In this document: positions 3,422-30,766 of the stretch, one piece after another | Layout of the letters: each line of letters opens with the position of its first letter | Position numbering within the stretch: the first letter of the stretch is position 1 | IMG/VR virus record: IMGVR_UViG_3300049783_001054 | Location: 1-64,000 of that record | Direction: 5' to 3' (one strand) | Origin: a virus | DNA: 64,000 nt | The notes under the pieces: model-generated | Told to the model about the DNA's origin: nothing | The model's input: the letters and a program-made list of their open reading frames with translations, nothing else | Databases searched by the model: none | Program-made: the position numbers and the translations under genes

Positions 3422-4450
3422 ATGGCAATTACCGATTGTAATGCAGATGAGCGGGCTAACTCCCTATTTACCTCTCTCACTACAGATTCCCCCACAATAC
3501 CTGTTATTGATTTAAGCAGCCCAGAGTTTTCCTACAGTAAGGATTTAACTTCTGATGTTTATACTGACACTATTGCTGTTACTTTAGATCAACTAACAGA
3601 GGTTGATTTAGAAGGCTCTGGTGTGTTTGATAAACTCATGCAAGCAATGGATATCCATATCCAGCGTGAGTTTAAAAACAACAGAATTACAGGAGATCAG
3701 TATGCAAAAGTCTACACTGAAATCTCTACAAGTGTTTTAAACCAATCTGTTTCATTCCTTTTAGCCAAGGAAGAGTCTAAGTGGTCTTCTATCACTGCAC
3801 AGATGAAAGCCCGTGTTGCTGAAATTGAAGCTACTGAAGCTCTCATTAAGCTTGAGGCTACTAAAGCTGATGCTCAGAAATCAGTATTCGATATGCAGAA
3901 TGCAGGTGCACAGTATGCTCTTACTAAGATGCAGATTGCTAATGCTGATGCTTCTTACTGTCTTACTTCTGTACAGTTTGATACAGCACAGTTTCAATTA
4001 ACTGAGATGCTTCCTGTCACGCTTAATAAAGAAAAACACTTACTAACTCTTCAATTACCTGCTCAAACTAATCTCCTTCTTGAGCAGCGTGAGACTCAAC
4101 GTGCACAGACACTTGATCTTAGGTCTGATGGTGTTACCACAGTCTCTGGTCTCGTAGGTAGACAAGCTAACCTACTTCAGGAGCAAGTCGAGAGTGAACG
4201 TGCAAAGACTATGGATTCTCGTTCAGACGGGTCCACCATCATTCTTGGTTCAATCGGTAAACAGAAGGATCTTTACACTCAGCAGATTGATAGCTTTGCA
4301 AAAGATTCTAAACAGAAAGCTGCTAAGATGTATCTTGATGGTTGGATTACGCAGAAGACATTAGATGAGAATCTTCTTGCTCCAACTGAGCTTAGTGTAG
4401 ATTCGGTTAGTAATGTTCTTCTCGCTATTCGTAACAACAATGGTCTGTAA
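3422..4450 (+). CDS. N4 gp54-like virion structural protein
   Basis: Synteny; GSGVFDKLM...RITGDQYA and GKQKDLYTQQIDSF...WITQKTLDE motifs. Confidence 0.8.
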   Translation: MAITDCNADERANSLFTSLTTDSPTIPVIDLSSPEFSYSKDLTSDVYTDTIAVTLDQLTEVDLEGSGVFDKLMQAMDIHIQREFKNNRITGDQYAKVYTEISTSVLNQSVSFLLAKEESKWSSITAQMKARVAEIEATEALIKLEATKADAQKSVFDMQNAGAQYALTKMQIANADASYCLTSVQFDTAQFQLTEMLPVTLNKEKHLLTLQLPAQTNLLLEQRETQRAQTLDLRSDGVTTVSGLVGRQANLLQEQVESERAKTMDSRSDGSTIILGSIGKQKDLYTQQIDSFAKDSKQKAAKMYLDGWITQKTLDENLLAPTELSVDSVSNVLLAIRNNNGL

Positions 4451-4464
4451 GGGGTTTAATTACC

Positions 4465-7239
4465 ATGGGTCTTTTTAGTGGTAGTAAACAGGTATATGTC
4501 TCATCATCAGTATATAATTTATCTGGTGATGAGATTGACCGTCCAAATTATTTAAAAACAAATGTTTTCTCAGCAGTAACCAATGGTAGTAATAACTATC
4601 TTGGAGAAACTATAATTAGTAGTTATTTAAATGGTCCGGGTATCATGCAGCGGTCATTTTTTAACTGGTCTGTTAATAATGATATTGCAGGACTTCCAAC
4701 ACTATTAGTTGAAGACAATGTTTCATTGCCTCAAGCTACAGTTGTTCCATTTATCCCTATCCCTGTGAGTCCTGTAGGTCTTGTGAATGTAGTTCAAAGT
4801 GTCGAACTTACAGATGGTGATTATGAATATTGGGCTGAAAAGTGGTTATTTGAAAATGATCCTGCGGAACTTTCAAACTTGTGGATTTCAGATTATGACT
4901 CCACAACTCACACAATTGCTATTCAATATGCTGATGGAAATGTTGTAAACATACCTGCAACAGATTACAGCAGTGTGGAAAAGTTTATCATTGCTAGGTA
5001 CTACCAAACAATACCTGAAGTTATTGAGACTTTAAACCAAGGTACTAAAACTACAGGAGTTTACTCTCGTCCAAATACAACAGGTTATACCTTAGACTCT
5101 ACTGTGAATACTGGAGTAGTCAGTTATAGTTTAGACCAAGATATTGATGTAGTGAAAGAGTATTCTGACGGATCTCCTACTATCACTGAGCCAACAGACT
5201 CAGTTACTATCAGTGAAAGCTTTAATGGTATTTTAGAGACTTGGGTTAAAAGTGAGTATGTTGGGTCTACTTCAGCAGCAGATGACACATCTACAGTGCA
5301 AAGTTGGATATACATTTGGACCTACAGAGAGATTTATGTAGATGGTGTTGGTACTACAGATGTAGTTGTAAATGATTTAGGTGGGGGTGATACCGAGACT
5401 GTAACTACAACCACTACAGGAGATTTTATCCGTGAAGTTATTGACCATCAATATGATAATCAAGAAACTATTTTAGAAAAAGTTGCAGGTAATAAAGGTA
5501 TTTGGATTTACCAAGTTGGTTCAGGTAATGCAATTCTTGATGTAGCTGTAGAATCTGTAAGTGTTGTGTCAAATCCCGGATATTACCCTTTCATACCTTT
5601 AAGGTTAGATAACAAATCTATAACTGAGCCAGCTTATGATGACATTACTGGTTCTGGTTTATTTAAAGAAAGTAAGAAAGCTTATAAGCGGGCTACTGGC
5701 GGTCCAATGAAAGGTAAGAGCATAGAGGACATCCTTACACAAGTTGAGGATAATCCCTCTATTGGGGATGTTGATTATGCCTACATTCAGTGGGGTGTTT
5801 CTGTAAACGCTATTGATCCTGCTTGTCGTCGTTATATGTATAAATGGTTCCAAAATATGATTGGGTATCAAAGTACTTCAGCTACGTCTATGACTGATTT
5901 TACTACATCTGTTAACACTTATGATGCTATGTATGCAGCCTCACAGACTTGGTTAGCAGCTCAGTATTATGATCCTAATGACCCATTGTCTGTTAAAGAT
6001 CCTCTTTTTGGTACCCCCAAACCACCAACACCTACCATTGTAGAACCTCCAAGATCTACTGTTAGATTAGTATCTGATCATCCTGATCTTTTGGGATTTG
6101 ATAATCGTTTTACATGGGTAAGTATTATAGAAACTAACCACACTGGTTTAGGTAAATTAGATGCGGTAGATGGAGATATTTGGTTTGAGAATTCTGATGC
6201 TTTAACTTGGACTATTAAAACTGGTACATTCACCCGAGATACTTTTGATACTAGCTATGTGATACCTCGTTCTCTCGATCAGATGACACTCTTTAAACAG
6301 ACAAGTGCAAGCACATACTCAAAGTTAACTATTTGGGGTATGGTGCATGAAAACTTTATCTATGGAGGTAAGTCTGTAAGAACTACTCTTAAAGATGGTG
6401 TTGCAGATGTTGATGAATCTGTGTTCATTATTCCTTTACATAATCCGACTGTCAAATCATTAGGAATTAAAGACTTTACACAACTATCATTGTCTAACAC
6501 TTTTATCACTTTTAACTCATATCAAGTTGTTAAACAAAAGTGGTATGAAAGTTTTGTTGTGATGCTGATTGTAATGATTGTCATCATTGTACTTGTAGCT
6601 TTGTTTGCTCCAATTACTTTAGGTGCAGCACCCGGTTTGTTAGGTACGAATGCTGCTGTAGGTACAGCCGTAGGGTTAACTGGTGTATCTGCTGCCATAG
6701 CAGGTGCTGCTATTAATGCTGTTGCAGGTGTTATTCTTGCTATGGTTATCACTGAAGTTGCAACCAGTATCTTTGGTGAAAAACTGGGAGCTATTATTGG
6801 TGCTATTGTAAGTTTTGCTATCACATATGGAATAAGTAGTGGTGGTTCATTTTCTGTTGCTGCTAATAATTTATTAGATGCACAGACATTATTAAGTATC
6901 ACATCTGCTATTGCTAATGGATACTCTGGTTATGTTAAAGCTGAAGGTTTAGAGATTCAAGCAGACATGGAAGATGCTCAAAATGTCTATGATAAAGCTG
7001 TAGAGGGTATTGAAGAACTTATGAGGTCTATGGGATTATATAATGACTTACTTTTTAATCCGTTATCCCTTACAGATAGCGTCAAAGGTAACAGTAAAAA
7101 AACTAATGGAAGCTACGTACCAGAGACTGTCGATCAATTCATTGGTAGAACTACCATGAGTGGTTCAGAGATTGCAGATATTACACTTTCTATGGTATCT
7201 AACTATTCAGAATTTCAACTTACACTTCCAAAAACTTAA
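4465..7239 (+). CDS. N4 gp53-like structural protein with C-terminal hydrophobic helices
   Basis: Starts MGLFSGSKQVYVSSSVYNL; YPFIPLRLDN, DNPSIGDVDYAY; hydrophobic/Gly-Ala segments near the C-terminus; synteny. Confidence 0.8.
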   Translation: MGLFSGSKQVYVSSSVYNLSGDEIDRPNYLKTNVFSAVTNGSNNYLGETIISSYLNGPGIMQRSFFNWSVNNDIAGLPTLLVEDNVSLPQATVVPFIPIPVSPVGLVNVVQSVELTDGDYEYWAEKWLFENDPAELSNLWISDYDSTTHTIAIQYADGNVVNIPATDYSSVEKFIIARYYQTIPEVIETLNQGTKTTGVYSRPNTTGYTLDSTVNTGVVSYSLDQDIDVVKEYSDGSPTITEPTDSVTISESFNGILETWVKSEYVGSTSAADDTSTVQSWIYIWTYREIYVDGVGTTDVVVNDLGGGDTETVTTTTTGDFIREVIDHQYDNQETILEKVAGNKGIWIYQVGSGNAILDVAVESVSVVSNPGYYPFIPLRLDNKSITEPAYDDITGSGLFKESKKAYKRATGGPMKGKSIEDILTQVEDNPSIGDVDYAYIQWGVSVNAIDPACRRYMYKWFQNMIGYQSTSATSMTDFTTSVNTYDAMYAASQTWLAAQYYDPNDPLSVKDPLFGTPKPPTPTIVEPPRSTVRLVSDHPDLLGFDNRFTWVSIIETNHTGLGKLDAVDGDIWFENSDALTWTIKTGTFTRDTFDTSYVIPRSLDQMTLFKQTSASTYSKLTIWGMVHENFIYGGKSVRTTLKDGVADVDESVFIIPLHNPTVKSLGIKDFTQLSLSNTFITFNSYQVVKQKWYESFVVMLIVMIVIIVLVALFAPITLGAAPGLLGTNAAVGTAVGLTGVSAAIAGAAINAVAGVILAMVITEVATSIFGEKLGAIIGAIVSFAITYGISSGGSFSVAANNLLDAQTLLSITSAIANGYSGYVKAEGLEIQADMEDAQNVYDKAVEGIEELMRSMGLYNDLLFNPLSLTDSVKGNSKKTNGSYVPETVDQFIGRTTMSGSEIADITLSMVSNYSEFQLTLPKT

Positions 7240-26936: not shown

Positions 26937-27106
26937 TACTCTTCCTCAACAGAAGCATTACAGTAAGTAATTATATCAATAGGTACATAAAAATTTTCAT
27001 TTTCCCATTTAAAAATAAAAACACCTTCAGTAATGTTCATATTTTTGTACCCTCTTATTACTTCGTGAGTTCCATCACGATATTTAATTTCAGCTATGTT
27101 TATCAT
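26936..27106 (-). CDS. Small hypothetical protein (56 aa), not in the ORF track
   Basis: MINIAEIKYRDGTHEV...; its stop overlaps the gp42 start (TAATG). Confidence 0.5.
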   Translation of the reverse strand: MINIAEIKYRDGTHEVIRGYKNMNITEGVFIFKWENENFYVPIDIITYCNASVEEE

Positions 27107-27404
27107 TTAGTATCCTATCGTTGTTATGAGTTATAGCATTTAAGTATGCTATTAGATCTGATTTATTTGAATTTATTGCAGCATGATCTACTACAATTAA
27201 AACTTTAGTATTGAATCTTGGTATGTCATCTCTATTTGAAGAAGCAAAATTAAGAAAAGCTTTTTTGTAATAAATTCTATTAGTTTTATAAGATAAATCG
27301 TTATATCTATATAAACTTAACATAAGTTTTAAACAATATTCAGTATTGTTTATATCTCTACAAAGATAACAACAATTTATACCATTTTTTATAAAATTAT
27401 GCAT
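27090..27404 (-). CDS. Hypothetical protein (very AT-rich)
   Basis: 104-aa ORF coupled to the end of the polymerase C-terminal fragment. Confidence 0.4.
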   Translation of the reverse strand: MHNFIKNGINCCYLCRDINNTEYCLKLMLSLYRYNDLSYKTNRIYYKKAFLNFASSNRDDIPRFNTKVLIVVDHAAINSNKSDLIAYLNAITHNNDRILNDKHS

Positions 27405-28177
27405 TAATAGATGTAATTGATTAGTAGTTTTCTTGTTGCTAACTTCTCTAAATGTTTAGCAATTTTATTTTTAACATCTTCAACAGATGCATTATTTGGG
27501 ATTGTCATTTCTTTACTCCAATCAGGATAAAAGACAGATAATTCACCACTCATTTTAATGTACTTGTTTTGTATGGCAGGGTCTTCTTGCCAGCTTACAG
27601 CTTTAACCATGTATTTATTAGTGTAGAGTAGTACATCCATATCATCTTTAATTAGCATGTACCCAGCATCATGGATTTGAGCACAGGGTTTGATACTTAA
27701 TCTATGTGGCCCACTACGGACCTCAGCTAAGAACTCAGAGCCTGCCCTTGAGTTTAACATGCAGTAGGACTGCCCAAGAGCATTACCCGCTGTACGGCCT
27801 TCTGCTGCTGCCTCATAAGGTGTCTTACTTGTTCCTAATACCACTTGGTTCAAGAGTGGGGTTCTAAGCCTAAGTCCAAATGCAAGAGTGACGTAGCCAT
27901 CTTTACAAGCTTGCTCTAGCTTATCTGCAACCCACTTATCTGAAACATGATAAAGTTTATGATAGCTGGCTTCAATAGACTTAGCCAACTCTAAAGTGAA
28001 TCCACAGTTTACCATCAAAGTTGCAAACGTACCTTGGTAGGTTAAAGCAAAAGTAGGAGCTTTCGATTCTTGACGCCAATGAGGGTACAAATATCTAATG
28101 GAATTCACCCTCGAAACATTATGCTCCGAGGGTGAAACTATGGAAATATTATCAATATTTCCATGTAAGTTAAGCAC
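27404..28177 (-). CDS. DNA polymerase family A, C-terminal fragment (motifs B and C)
   Basis: RQESKAPTFALTYQG (motif B), RTAGNALGQS, QIHDA (motif C). Confidence 0.92.
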   Translation of the reverse strand: MLNLHGNIDNISIVSPSEHNVSRVNSIRYLYPHWRQESKAPTFALTYQGTFATLMVNCGFTLELAKSIEASYHKLYHVSDKWVADKLEQACKDGYVTLAFGLRLRTPLLNQVVLGTSKTPYEAAAEGRTAGNALGQSYCMLNSRAGSEFLAEVRSGPHRLSIKPCAQIHDAGYMLIKDDMDVLLYTNKYMVKAVSWQEDPAIQNKYIKMSGELSVFYPDWSKEMTIPNNASVEDVKNKIAKHLEKLATRKLLINYIY

Positions 28178-28688
28178 GAGGTGAAATACCCCAATCTTCT
28201 GCTAACATATCAGTTTGTGAAGCTAACCAACCAATGACAATTGATCCATCTGCTGCACGCATATCAATGTGTGGTAAAATATTAAGAGTTTTTACACCTT
28301 CGTTTGCACGACCTTTAGCTACACCAGATCTAGCTAAATTAGATCTAATAGTTGAACCTTCTTGTAAAGCGATCCACATATTTTTACCGTTCCATCCTGA
28401 TCTTGAAACATGGTATCCTTTCTTCAAAAAATACAAAGCATGTCCAAAGTCAAACTCTCCGTGAGATCGGTAAGCTTCTTCAAATTGAGATTTTGGAGAC
28501 CAGCTAATATAACCAGAATGATTAGAGTGGTTGCTTTTACCATCTGGGTATTCAACTAAGTAACCTTCATCCTTTCCCTCTTCATCAGAAGGTACAACCC
28601 AACCACGATAGAAATTGTAATTTTCTCTATCCATTGGAGTAGCTAAAAGACTCTTAGTACCAATATAGTGTTTCATTTTTATTCTCAT
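28170..28688 (-). CDS. Tad2/DUF2829-family protein with an extra N-terminal domain, inserted between the two polymerase halves
   Basis: C-terminal FGHALYFLKKG...RSGWNGKNM...WLASQTDMLAEDW is the DUF2829/Tad2 signature; N-terminal YIGTK...EGYLVEY...SWSPK domain. Confidence 0.8.
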   Translation of the reverse strand: MRIKMKHYIGTKSLLATPMDRENYNFYRGWVVPSDEEGKDEGYLVEYPDGKSNHSNHSGYISWSPKSQFEEAYRSHGEFDFGHALYFLKKGYHVSRSGWNGKNMWIALQEGSTIRSNLARSGVAKGRANEGVKTLNILPHIDMRAADGSIVIGWLASQTDMLAEDWGISPRA

Positions 28689-30766
28689 TTGTTTATTAAG
28701 GCAAACAACTCTTTACCGAGTAGTTCTTGACCATTGTAGTTGATTATCTCTTCACTGTGAAAGTATATGTTTTTATTATTAATTGAAGCACTATATGCAA
28801 CAGCATTATAAGGTAACATTTCAATATCTGGCATATGCTCTTTAAAGTAAGCTAAAGCTCTAAGACAATGACCATCAAAACCATCAGAATAGACTTTGAT
28901 TTTTTCTGGATCATTGGTTGTGACTGCTGAGATTTTATCCTCTAAAGAATCAAAATCCAACCCTACAAACAACCATCCGGGAGGAGCCTCAAAACACTCC
29001 TTAATCATTTTTGCTAGTCTTCTTTTTGCTTTAGTAGAACCAGCAGAAGGAATGTTTTGTAAATTAGGTCCATTGCTTGAGAGTCTTCCTGAAGCTGTTC
29101 CACCTAATCTGAAATTACCAAATAGATAATACCAACCATCTTTTCCTTTTTTTGCCTTTAGAAATGCAGGTAGAAAAGTAGAAAGAATAATAGCACTTGC
29201 TTTGTATTCAATTAGTAATTCTAAGAATCGTACAGCTTCTGGATCTTTAGTGTGCATGATTAACTTTTCAAGTGTATCAGCACCTGTAGCTGGTTGTTTT
29301 GTATCGGTGTAATCTAATACAGGCAAACCAAGAAAATCTTCATCATATAAAAATCTTTGTAATTGTTTAGGTGATCCCGGATTAAACTCTACAACAGTAT
29401 CTTTTGTTAATCCTAAATCTGCTTTAGTAATCTGCTTTGTTTTTAGTTTAGCATTCTTTTCTGTGACTTTTTCATCTTTTAGGTAATCAATAAAGGTCCA
29501 AACAATCTGAAGGCTGTTCATTTTGTTTAGATTTTCTTCACTTTCTACTCTTAGAGTCTTATAAAGTTCTATTACTTTTTCCATATTCAAAGGCATACCA
29601 GTAAGTTGCATTTGAATAATGTCAATCACAGCAGGTTTGAACAAAGTTTGATAAGGTATATTTTGATTCTGGGCCATCATAATCGGGTAGTTTTTATTAT
29701 ATACATACCACGTAGATAGACCATCAATCAGGTTATACTTTAGCAACTTGTCTAATGGGATTTTACTAATATCTTTGATATCTTCAACCGCATAATTTCC
29801 TGCAAATTCTTGAGCTTGTAATTTTAAACCAAGCTCATTACCTGCACAACTGTTTGTAGCAAGATAGCTAATAATTTGCGTACAGTCCCAATTTTTAAGC
29901 ATTACATCTAGACCTTCAAGAAGTCCTTCTTGATCTAGAATGTCTTCCATAAATAACTGATAAACCATTACATAAACATCAAAGCAGATGTTGTGGTAAA
30001 GCATCTTATGTTTGAAAGCTTTAAAGAAGTTTTTTAAATGTTCTTTCATTTTTGGATTTGAATACTTAAATCCAACTCGATCATTTTTTCCAGTTGAATC
30101 TACATGGTACTCAACAGGAAAAGCAATACCTTCATTTTCATTCCAGCAAAATGTAATTGTACCAATTCCAGAGTCATAATGTTTCAAACTGAAACCTTCA
30201 ATGTCACAAGATAGGTCACAATTCATATCTAACAAACGATCTAACCAAACAAGAATGTTTGCATAGTCTTTAGGGTATTCAGAAAACTTGATAATGTTTT
30301 TACCAACTACTGTAGTATTTCCAATTGCCCATCTACAGGTAGCCTCAAATGCCATCTTAATCTTTGGTTTAATCTTATCTGGGTCGTAAAATATACGTGA
30401 GTAATTTGGGCAGTAAGTCACCGAGAAGTCAGGATCATAATCTGAAACAATAATGTCCCCAATGGTGGCATCTGTTTTTGCTTTTTTGGTTAAAACTTTA
30501 AAATACTCTGGATGAGTTACAACCAACATCTTAATCCCTTCTGCCTTTAAGTTTGGCAGAAGGTCATCAAGATATTCTTTCATATCAGATACAGTGTTTT
30601 TCTTTTTTGTTTGATCTATAAATAGATCAGCGATCATTGCATTCTCACCCAATGCTAAGAGGTGAGGTTGGTAGTAATGTTTTTGCACCTCCGCTGTCTG
30701 GATACGTGGAACCAAGATAGCAATTCTTGGTTCCTTTATAGAGTCTCCAATGATCTCATACTTCAT
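28685..30766 (-). CDS. DNA polymerase family A, N-terminal fragment (3'-5' exonuclease and motif A; N4 gp39-like)
   Basis: Exo I DIEG, Exo II HNICFD, Exo III YNLID; SGRLSSNGPNLQNIP; GLDFDSLE (motif A); DGHCLRA. Confidence 0.93.
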   Translation of the reverse strand: MKYEIIGDSIKEPRIAILVPRIQTAEVQKHYYQPHLLALGENAMIADLFIDQTKKKNTVSDMKEYLDDLLPNLKAEGIKMLVVTHPEYFKVLTKKAKTDATIGDIIVSDYDPDFSVTYCPNYSRIFYDPDKIKPKIKMAFEATCRWAIGNTTVVGKNIIKFSEYPKDYANILVWLDRLLDMNCDLSCDIEGFSLKHYDSGIGTITFCWNENEGIAFPVEYHVDSTGKNDRVGFKYSNPKMKEHLKNFFKAFKHKMLYHNICFDVYVMVYQLFMEDILDQEGLLEGLDVMLKNWDCTQIISYLATNSCAGNELGLKLQAQEFAGNYAVEDIKDISKIPLDKLLKYNLIDGLSTWYVYNKNYPIMMAQNQNIPYQTLFKPAVIDIIQMQLTGMPLNMEKVIELYKTLRVESEENLNKMNSLQIVWTFIDYLKDEKVTEKNAKLKTKQITKADLGLTKDTVVEFNPGSPKQLQRFLYDEDFLGLPVLDYTDTKQPATGADTLEKLIMHTKDPEAVRFLELLIEYKASAIILSTFLPAFLKAKKGKDGWYYLFGNFRLGGTASGRLSSNGPNLQNIPSAGSTKAKRRLAKMIKECFEAPPGWLFVGLDFDSLEDKISAVTTNDPEKIKVYSDGFDGHCLRALAYFKEHMPDIEMLPYNAVAYSASINNKNIYFHSEEIINYNGQELLGKELFALINK

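Follow-up and report, generated by a model that had tools for sequence, protein, structure and literature searches.

Introduction

The MobA element of phage T4 adds a C-terminal extension (CTE) of ~44 amino acids (aa) to gene 39, and it also brings an out-of-frame HNH endonuclease gene, together with an N-terminal extension (NTE) and a 50-nucleotide (nt) bypass for gene 60 (Manning & Atkins 2022, bioRxiv 10.1101/2022.08.31.505936). When such elements decay, the endonuclease is lost first and the bypass next, and the tails are never lost; MobA elements were stated to be exclusive to Topo2L (10.1101/2022.08.31.505936). The CTE and NTE of T4 form a pendant 'assembly bracket' of ~70 aa on the TOPRIM domain, as visualized by cryo-electron microscopy (PMC11461880). 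In the split NrdA of phage Aeh1, the tails are essential for activity (PMC3045599). Here, we describe a split gene for a family A DNA polymerase (PolA) with comparable tails, which is located on the minus strand of the window, i.e., the whole stretch of 64,000 nt that was analysed (positions 1 to 64,000 of the IMG/VR virus record IMGVR_UViG_3300049783_001054).

This locus is probably a decayed homing cassette of the MobA/MobE type in the family A polymerase of a marine N4-like phage, and its slot now carries an anti-defence cargo. It has the features of such cassettes, i.e., a ~44-aa CTE that is absent from the uninterrupted homologues, an NTE, and a tail that is homologous to the tail of an endonuclease-bearing cassette. 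The insertion site, the size of the uncultured clade, the leader hairpins and, above all, the replacement of the endonuclease by exchangeable anti-defence-type genes are new. No published account of a tailed split PolA in N4-like phages, or of Tad2/Acb2 genes within a split polymerase, was found.

Results

Division of the polymerase gene

Three tightly linked open reading frames (ORFs) on the minus strand encode the N part of PolA, a Tad2-like protein and the C part of PolA (Table 1). An earlier sequence-only reading of this DNA had described a polymerase that is broken between motifs A and B, and this was confirmed by both profiles and alignment. The Pfam DNA_pol_A profile is matched by residues 445–645 of the N part at profile positions 14–199, and by the C part at positions 204–302. 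The phrog_17 profile of PHROG is divided cleanly between the two parts at 1056/1057, and the C part matches its positions 1057–1259 and also phrog_2573. In the cultured relatives, the polymerase is one unbroken gene of 872 aa. Against the unsplit polymerase of roseophage RD-1410W1-01 (872 aa), residues 1–649 of the N part align to residues 1–635 with 64% identity, and residues 20–251 of the C part align to residues 638–870 with 54% identity.

The breakpoint, which the sequence-only reading had proposed to fix by alignment, was placed in this way. The unsplit enzyme loses just two residues, Ala-Gly in ...MPDID-AG-SVESINSI..., and these are replaced by an insert of 699 nt (28121–28819) that consists of a 44-aa tail, the stop codon, the middle gene and a 19-aa leader. 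The extra tail of ~45 aa and leader of ~19 aa noticed earlier correspond to 44 and 19 aa, respectively, as compared with the roseophage enzyme. The overlaps of the ORFs, ATGA (28685–28688) and GTGCTTAA (28170–28177), were found as described.

The catalytic motifs were also read correctly as intact. In the alignment of the N parts from 66 relatives, D604, E609 and D610 of motif A and the exonuclease residues D188, E190, D263, Y344 and D348 are invariant. In that of the C parts from 57 relatives, R35, K39, F43, Y47 and G49 of motif B and H169 and D170 of motif C are invariant. Motif B is uninterrupted in the window, and a bypass gap of the MobA type is not present there. The AlphaFold2 (AF2) model of the N part core had a mean predicted local distance difference test score (pLDDT) of 85. 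The source genome is a complete virus record of 76,286 base pairs (bp), and no second PolA gene was found in it. Judged from the neighbour genes and the best matches, the virus is a member of the Schitoviridae, nearest to the roseophage subfamily (~63% identity).

A constrained tail related to the extensions of homing cassettes

The tail is found in all split relatives and has no counterpart in the unsplit ones. From 12 different sequences, the ratio of nonsynonymous to synonymous substitution rates (dN/dS) of the tail was 0.19, while those of the adjacent core and the leader were 0.047 and 0.49, respectively. The differences between the tails at codon positions 1, 2 and 3 numbered 717, 393 and 1200. 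This third-position bias and the dN/dS value indicate that the tail is translated and constrained. In the AF2 model, the tail forms four strands (residues 657–662, 665–670, 674–677 and 680–683) and a helix (684–692) with a pLDDT of 82–92, which is above that of the neighbouring polymerase segment, modelled without its partner. The same four strands and helix were obtained when the tail was modelled alone. The tail is therefore conserved at the protein level and predicted to fold. A complex prediction from the alignments of the tail and the C half gave values of ipSAE, the interface score, of 0.01–0.02, which have no bearing either way.

Among 1.84 billion representative proteins, the tail profile matched solely the extreme C termini of PolA N parts, after four repeat proteins had been rejected as unrelated surface proteins (P0245, P0258, P0262 and P0267; P-numbers denote proteins of the protein collection, and L-numbers below denote the DNA loci of relatives). 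No copy of the tail inside an unsplit polymerase was found among these representatives. Searches with the tail returned nothing meaningful from Pfam, merely repeat-like beta-hairpin noise from the PDB sequences, and its own family only from the ESM Atlas.

A similarity was obtained with the polymerase tail of coliphage VEc25, for which the profile comparison by hhalign gave a probability of 87% (E-value 3.7e-6, 40 columns). The tail also has a pattern in common with the CTE of T4 gp39, D/N-G-x-x-I ... E-[IV]-x-[YI]-x-G-[QK] ... E-L. The top structural match of the tail model by two aligners, though not a significant one, was chain C of 8yo3 (T4 topoisomerase II), at the C-terminal extension of gp39. 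Foldseek gave a template modelling (TM) score of 0.56 and a root-mean-square deviation of 2.1 Å over 37 columns with an E-value of 1.0, and VIA gave a Z-score of 2.7 at residues 467–518. From these comparisons, the CTE of HNH homing cassettes is a better-supported identity for the tail than a fragment of a Hint domain, the fold of inteins.

Some distant tails have a Cys residue at position 3 (..ELCPEG..) and others have one at position 9 (..AxCYKA..), and the two seem to exclude each other. The tails compared are P0190, P0193, P0216 and P0151 versus P0226, P0232, P0233, P0238 and P0228.

Recurrence and distribution of the split

The same tail, leader and break were found in at least 14 different loci with DNA from independent assemblies. 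A misassembly is ruled out, because the same layout recurs in independent samples, and the layout did not arise by chance in one genome. In the protein collection, at least 120 clusters of N parts of ~690 aa bear the tail, and the C part has over 1,000 homologues with lengths of 141–450 aa, of which the 120 listed are mostly of ~250 aa. The tail follows the core in frame with 44–46 codons in every DNA locus, and the leader has 19 codons, with minor variation in the most distant ones. Even in L041, which represents a distant lineage (~40–50% identity), the tail is still recognisable. No record of the tail was found in the deposited phages of INPHARED.

Concerning the history, the N part of L013 is 98% identical to that of L009, and yet L013 differs by an acquired endonuclease and by another leader and another beginning of the C part, all three of which resemble those of the distant L053. 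By this comparison, L013 looks like a fresh invasion.

The slot holds exchangeable genes

The cargo and the layout were surveyed in about 14 different DNA loci from IMG/VR and JGI contigs. Tad2-like genes of several architectures occupy the slot in the window, L008, the L009 group, L013, L014, L063 and L068, and proteins ending in an Acb2/Tad1 hairpin domain, one of them fused to a RyR domain, occupy it in L004, L007 and L012. A NUMOD4/HNH_3 endonuclease is present in L053, and in L013 beside its Tad2-like gene. In L006, a scar retains 10 codons from the start and a few from the end of a Tad2-like gene, and L010 and L041 contain nothing. By slot content, the locus types were seven with a Tad2-like gene, three with an Acb2/Tad1-hairpin protein, one with HNH only, one empty and one with the scar. 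The break thus behaves as the cargo slot that the sequence-only reading had imagined.

The flanking polymerase DNA of L004, L006 and L008 is 90–95% identical, and their slots contain an Acb2/Tad1-hairpin protein, the scar and a Tad2-like gene, respectively. Such different cargo between such similar flanks indicates that the turnover is recent. The borders of the slot are conserved: the tail ends with ...AACAAG TGA GA..., and in every relative the next start codon follows 6–10 nt on and the stop codon of the cargo overlaps the start of the C part (ATGCTTAA or TAATG). The slot has the properties of a hotspot, i.e., a fixed place between conserved genes with variable content of the anti-defence type in close relatives. 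Since both of the named cargo kinds belong to families of immune-nucleotide sponges, an anti-defence role of the slot cargo is a reasonable reading from the homology. PADLOC gave no match with the cargo proteins, as expected for a library of defence, not counter-defence, proteins.

RyR-domain proteins recur by the polymerase. In L012, one (4453–5001) lies in the slot, fused to the Acb2/Tad1 hairpin domain, and in L053, one (4434–4868) stands alone just after the C part.

The cargo of the window was confirmed as Tad2-like by a PF11195 score above the cut-off and by similarity to solved Tad2 proteins. Its residues 78–168 match 8kbi, 8wjd, 8sme and 9eib with E-values of 2e-16 to 1e-10. The true start of the cargo is likely the ATG at 28674–28676, located 8 nt after the polymerase stop codon, as suggested by the equivalent start in relatives.

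The N-terminal ~75 aa of the cargo (28458–28688, minus strand) gave a TM score by query of 0.86–0.93 to Sequestin (PF21825) clusters as a lead from the ESM Atlas, in which some Sequestin clusters are fused to Acb2-family or Tad2-like domains. No match by sequence was found in Pfam for this domain. From this modelled similarity, the cargo may be a double sponge.

RNA hairpins at the start of the C part

The leader pattern ML.[ILF]...[VIL]..[VI]..V..SEH|NV and its length are kept in 57 relatives, with ATG starts. The RNA of this region was assessed per sequence, by folding in comparison with synonymous shuffles. The first 99 nt of the C part in the window had a minimum free energy of -34.3 kcal/mol by ViennaRNA, versus -13.2 kcal/mol for the synonymous-codon shuffles (z -7.5). 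In the equivalent 99 nt, excess structure was detected in 11 of the 12 different split forms, with z values from -2.2 to -8.0, and most of these forms, including the window, have two adjacent stable hairpins (Table 1). The sole clear exception was the endonuclease-bearing L013. In contrast, 15 unsplit polymerases did not show a comparable signal at the same place (z +1.5 to -2.9, mean ~-0.7). The sense strand was more stable than the antisense strand in about half of the cases.

Hairpin 2 of L004 has another sequence that also pairs (GACGCGAGCG/CGCUCGUGUC), with codon-family switches of Ser and Arg. RNAalifold did not find a common structure for the leader region, because the two variants of hairpin 2 pair with their registers offset by one base. 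From its position 12 nt behind the start codon of the C part, hairpin 1 would hinder the binding of a fresh ribosome, and it would be opened by a ribosome that terminates at the overlapping stop codon upstream.

Gaps and further breaks in the polymerases of relatives

Short gaps resembling a bypass were observed in motif B of some relatives. In L013 (4737–4776; also L050 and L062), FALT ending with the Thr codon ACT is followed by a 40-nt gap ending with ACA, and then by YQG. In L053 (3855–3901; also L054), FALT(ACT) is followed by a 47-nt gap ending with ACT, and then by YQG; this gap has a stop codon one codon after the take-off site and a C7/G8 hairpin. In L041 (4985–5000; also L040 and L042), KAPT(ACT) is followed by TAA CT and then TTT, i.e., a 5-nt gap (ACT-TA-ACT), where a stop codon directly follows the take-off site and a hairpin of 10 bp lies immediately upstream. 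Together, the matched Thr codons, the nearby stop codons and the GC-rich hairpins recall the bypass of T4 gene 60, and the sequences are putative bypass sites. The gap in L013 and L053 may protect the target site of the HNH enzyme that they carry.

Further polymerase breaks are located just before motif A in L064 (2191–2845), L036 (4160–4794) and L043 (3952–4590), at residues ~583–604, and in L043 at 503–510. The polymerase of L064 would be in three pieces. The profile phrog_2573 (336 positions) seems to describe C pieces that begin at this earlier break.

In L065 (230–730) and L066 (1827–2330), from two samples, the end of the N part with its tail precedes a shortened Tad2-like gene and 26 residues of the C core, and the remainder is unrelated high-GC sequence. 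These two are either a chimeric assembly or a captured fragment.

Features and neighbours of the locus

The positions of the features are summarized in Table 1. The genes around the split encode a helicase, a ribonucleotide reductase, a gp42-like protein and a primase. Directly after the C part, an ORF of 104 aa (27090–27404, minus strand) has a start codon overlapping the stop codon of the C part. It has a G+C content of ~22%, shows no family match, and is absent from the roseophage relatives, in which the gp42-like gene follows the polymerase. This ORF looks like a recent acquisition. A scan of the region for promoters and terminators found nothing beyond the shuffles.

Table 1. Features of the split polymerase locus and their positions in the window
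Feature	Position	Strand	Description
PolA N part ORF	28685–30766	-	693 aa; stop codon TGA 28685–28687
PolA N part core, residues 1–649	28820–30766	-	3'-5' exonuclease domain, thumb, palm with motif A; PF00476, phrog_17
Tail (CTE), N part residues 650–693	28688–28819	-	No counterpart in unsplit relatives; kept in all split relatives
Tad2-like cargo gene	28170–28688	-	172 aa from the first ATG; PF11195 (E-value 2.9e-22); phrog_872
Tad2-like domain, residues 78–168	28185–28457	-	PF11195, 79.4 bits against a cut-off of 25
PolA C part ORF	27404–28177	-	257 aa, GTG start
Leader (NTE), C part residues 1–19	28121–28177	-	GTG start 28175–28177 within the last cargo codons (GTGCTTAA)
PolA C part core, residues 20–257 and stop codon	27404–28120	-	Fingers with motif B, palm with motif C
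RNA hairpin 1	28137–28166	-	Stem of 11–13 bp, loop GAU; begins 12 nt after the C part start codon (ViennaRNA)
RNA hairpin 2	28104–28136	-	Up to 15 bp; last leader codons pair with first core codons (VSRVN)

Discussion

A proposed history and function of the locus

The following scheme would explain the locus as a decayed homing cassette. A cassette would once have entered a fingers loop of the family A DNA polymerase, and supplied an in-frame CTE (the 44-aa tail), an out-of-frame HNH gene and an NTE (the 19-aa leader). The polymerase halves would be translated separately and act as a non-covalent two-chain enzyme, in which the tail and the leader, by analogy with T4 gp39/gp60, may build a small bracket domain that hangs outside the fingers and assists the assembly of the halves. 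In this lineage the endonuclease would have been lost, and the place between the end of the tail and the start of the leader would have become an exchangeable slot. On this account, the Tad2-like gene is not the origin of the split and would be a later tenant of a slot first held by an endonuclease. Judged from homology, the Tad2-like cargo probably sequesters Thoeris or related nucleotide signals. As the stop and start codons lie so close together, ribosomes that complete one gene probably go directly on to the next, first from the N part to the cargo and then from the cargo to the C half. The two hairpins probably block an independent initiation of the C half, and would keep the halves in step whatever the cargo is; this is the weakest, purely inferred step of the scheme.

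Several observations weigh against this explanation or against parts of it. Neither an HNH endonuclease nor a trace of one was found in the window, which has a Tad2-like gene instead; the HNH genes in the slots of L013 and L053, for their part, fit the published decay series. The profile similarity of the tail to the CTE of T4 gp39 is weak (hhalign probability 40%, E-value 3e-4, 33 columns), and the structural scores of this 44-aa piece against gp39 are far below significance. The leader profile has no detectable similarity to the N-terminal extensions of T4 gp60 and VEc25. As a peptide, the leader is constrained only loosely (dN/dS 0.49), and the RNA hairpins, not a role in a bracket, may account for part of its conservation. 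For Aeh1 NrdA, the tails are reported to be dispensable for the binding of the halves (PMC3045599), so the role of a bracket in assembly may be indirect. With respect to the history, the split forms are located in four well-supported places among the unsplit forms in the tree of the polymerase core, one of which, L041, lies on a long branch, so that its position is unsure. Either the cassette invaded repeatedly by homing, or unsplit genes were restored repeatedly.

Other explanations of the split

The halves might be rejoined at the RNA level, by splicing of a group I or II intron or by another route, or during translation, by ribosomal bypass of the whole insert. Group I introns occur in phage polymerase genes elsewhere. 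Hairpin 2 bridges the junction of the leader and the core, and the relatives have the short bypass-like gaps in motif B. The sequence-only reading had seen no room for an intron, and neither room nor signal was found: no intron family was detected with Rfam, either in this region of the window at permissive settings or in four relatives at the gathering threshold, and, in place of a group I intron core, the cargo is preceded by 132 nt of coding sequence under purifying selection and followed by only ~50 nt. In all relatives, the reading frame of the tail is open, has a fixed length and evolves under purifying selection. Inserts of 202–1188 nt with unrelated cargo fit neither an intron core nor a ribosomal hop, and the smallest one (L010) has 70 nt from the end of the tail to the core, with only 10 nt from the N-part stop codon to the start codon (ATG) of the C part. 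Such rejoining is highly improbable. According to another explanation, which we regard as unlikely, the tail and the leader are the ends of a degenerate split intein (Hint) that has lost its chemistry and kept its tight association. The sequence-only reading had proposed a degenerate, non-splicing Hint pair, and the two halves of this claim fared differently. The absence of splicing holds, as the tail begins with Met or Leu and Val follows the His-Asn of the leader, so that both intein nucleophiles are lacking and protein splicing is impossible. The Hint identity gained no support from sequence, and Hint ancestry of the tail is a weak lead: an intein or Hint family was found neither in Pfam at E-values up to 10 nor, by sequence, among the PDB inteins, and the support comes from weak structural matches only. 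Six of the 10 PDB representatives with Z-scores of at least 2 against the tail model are inteins (5bkh, 4lx3, 1dq3, 6riy, 7cfv and 6dsl; Z 2.1–2.6), but Z-scores of 2–3 do not rise above noise, any fragment with two hairpins may be matched by inteins, which are rich in hairpins, and no intein appeared among ranks 1–50 of Foldseek. The leader ends in a nearly invariant His-Asn with synonymous codon changes, and a Cys is located near the start of the tail in some distant relatives; on the other side, the Thr and His of block B are absent, and even the smallest Hint domain is about twice as long as the 63 aa of the tail and the leader together. Marine metagenomes contain fractured genes in which split inteins are accompanied by a free-standing endonuclease (PMC2677866), and an intein origin would be compatible with the homing cassette, whose tails could descend from an intein. 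No polymerase of sufficient length for an intein at the break site was detected when such proteins were searched for, which is weak evidence. The tail profile is dissimilar to the intein of P0196. This protein (964 aa) contains a genuine intein (PF14890) at residues ~553–829 (GRLS|...|SN, at residue ~563 of the window polymerase) in addition to the tail, so true inteins target this polymerase too, at another site.

It is also possible, though quite unlikely, that the native polymerase interface alone holds the halves together, and that the tail is an autonomous domain with another job, such as binding a replisome partner or regulation, with the leader mainly a by-product of the hairpins. The tail folds by itself in the models, with a confidence above that of the neighbouring polymerase segment. 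The leader peptide is weakly constrained, and its conserved Gly/Ser positions coincide with the codons of the stems. The Aeh1 NrdA tails, reported to be dispensable for the heterodimer and essential for activity (PMC3045599), also agree with it. Against it, the tail occurs only on split polymerases at the break among the 1.84 billion representatives, and it is thus tied to the split; it is acidic, and direct binding to DNA is therefore unlikely. In addition, the end of the leader, SEHNV, is conserved as protein, with synonymous changes in the hairpin loop. A decayed homing cassette is the explanation that we favour.

Implications

If the cassette explanation is correct, the locus illustrates how an essential gene can be left permanently, yet harmlessly, broken by a selfish homing cassette, and how a phage lineage can then put the break to use as a sheltered site for counter-defence genes that are exchanged. 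Uncultured marine N4-like phages commonly have this layout, and the C half is mis-started by gene callers (228 aa in the call of the collection, P0001, versus the ORF of 257 aa). These two points matter for annotation and for polymerase-based phylogenies. With the conserved flanks of the slot as a simple handle, new anti-defence genes can be mined from metagenomes. As a compact and portable module, the tail could be useful for protein engineering if it is a true bracket. The bypass-like gaps of the relatives, if real, would end the isolation of the T4 gene 60 case. We would go further only tentatively, to a rather doubtful proposal: the unit of tail, slot and leader would be a polymerase-targeting sister of T4 MobA, of which the endonuclease-bearing relatives keep a gene-60-like bypass in motif B, and which has been domesticated here as a slot for immune sponges, with expression locked to the replication enzyme by hairpin-enforced coupling.

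Comparison with known systems

The cargo domain is similar to the Tad2 sponges SPO1 gp34.65 (8sme), HgmTad2/AcrIIA7 (8kbi), SptTad2 (8wjd) and ModTad2 (9eib). Unlike these solved proteins, the cargo has an extra N-terminal domain of ~75 aa (phrog_872), and a location inside a split polymerase is not described for them.

The fractured genes in which split inteins occur together with a free-standing endonuclease (Dassa 2009, PMC2677866) are similar in that replication genes of marine and other phages are broken, with a mobile gene between the pieces. The halves are rejoined by protein trans-splicing in those systems, whereas every splicing residue checked is missing here. The split gp43 of Aeromonas phages 25 and 44RR (Petrov 2006, cited in PMC2677866) is a family B polymerase.

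In nrdA-a/mobE/nrdA-b of Aeh1 ('genes in pieces', Friedrich 2007; Crona 2011, PMC3045599), as is probable here, a homing endonuclease split an essential enzyme, C- and N-terminal tails derived from the insertion are present (essential for activity in Aeh1), and there is neither RNA nor protein splicing. The enzyme and the phage family are different, and the tails of Aeh1 act on a higher-order assembly, not on heterodimer formation; turnover of the cargo is not described for Aeh1.

In VEc25 (MW175414, species Enquatrovirus N4), two 'DNA polymerase' coding sequences and an 'HNH homing endonuclease' are annotated in GenBank, and the same type of HNH-split annotation is present in coliphages Pollock, PMBT57 and SP5M. 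The virus family and the gene are the same as here, the 44-aa tail is homologous, and the middle gene overlaps both halves. However, the VEc25 break is 22 residues upstream (after KVY, before GYDGH), as compared with the break after MPDIE here, and its 29-aa leader is unrelated in sequence to the 19-aa leader. The slot of VEc25 retains the endonuclease, and no anti-defence cargo was seen there.

T4 gene 39/mobA/gene 60 has the same plan as the present locus. In both, a break divides an essential replication gene, the upstream half has an in-frame extension of ~44 aa, and the downstream half has an N-terminal extension. In T4 MobA, the endonuclease gene lies out of frame between the halves with overlapping ends, and decay series are known in which the tails are kept after the loss of the endonuclease. 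The HNH-bearing relatives resemble T4 also in having a short structured gap with matched Thr codons downstream. On the other hand, the host gene here encodes a family A DNA polymerase, not a topoisomerase; the leader has 19 aa, not ~45, and is not similar to the gp60 extension; the window has neither endonuclease nor bypass; and the slot holds an anti-defence-type gene that varies among the relatives. By analogy, the locus would work like the T4 gene 39/mobA/gene 60 and Aeh1 nrdA cases, and its homologous tail suggests that one cassette family includes both this locus and the HNH-split polymerase of the N4-species coliphages.

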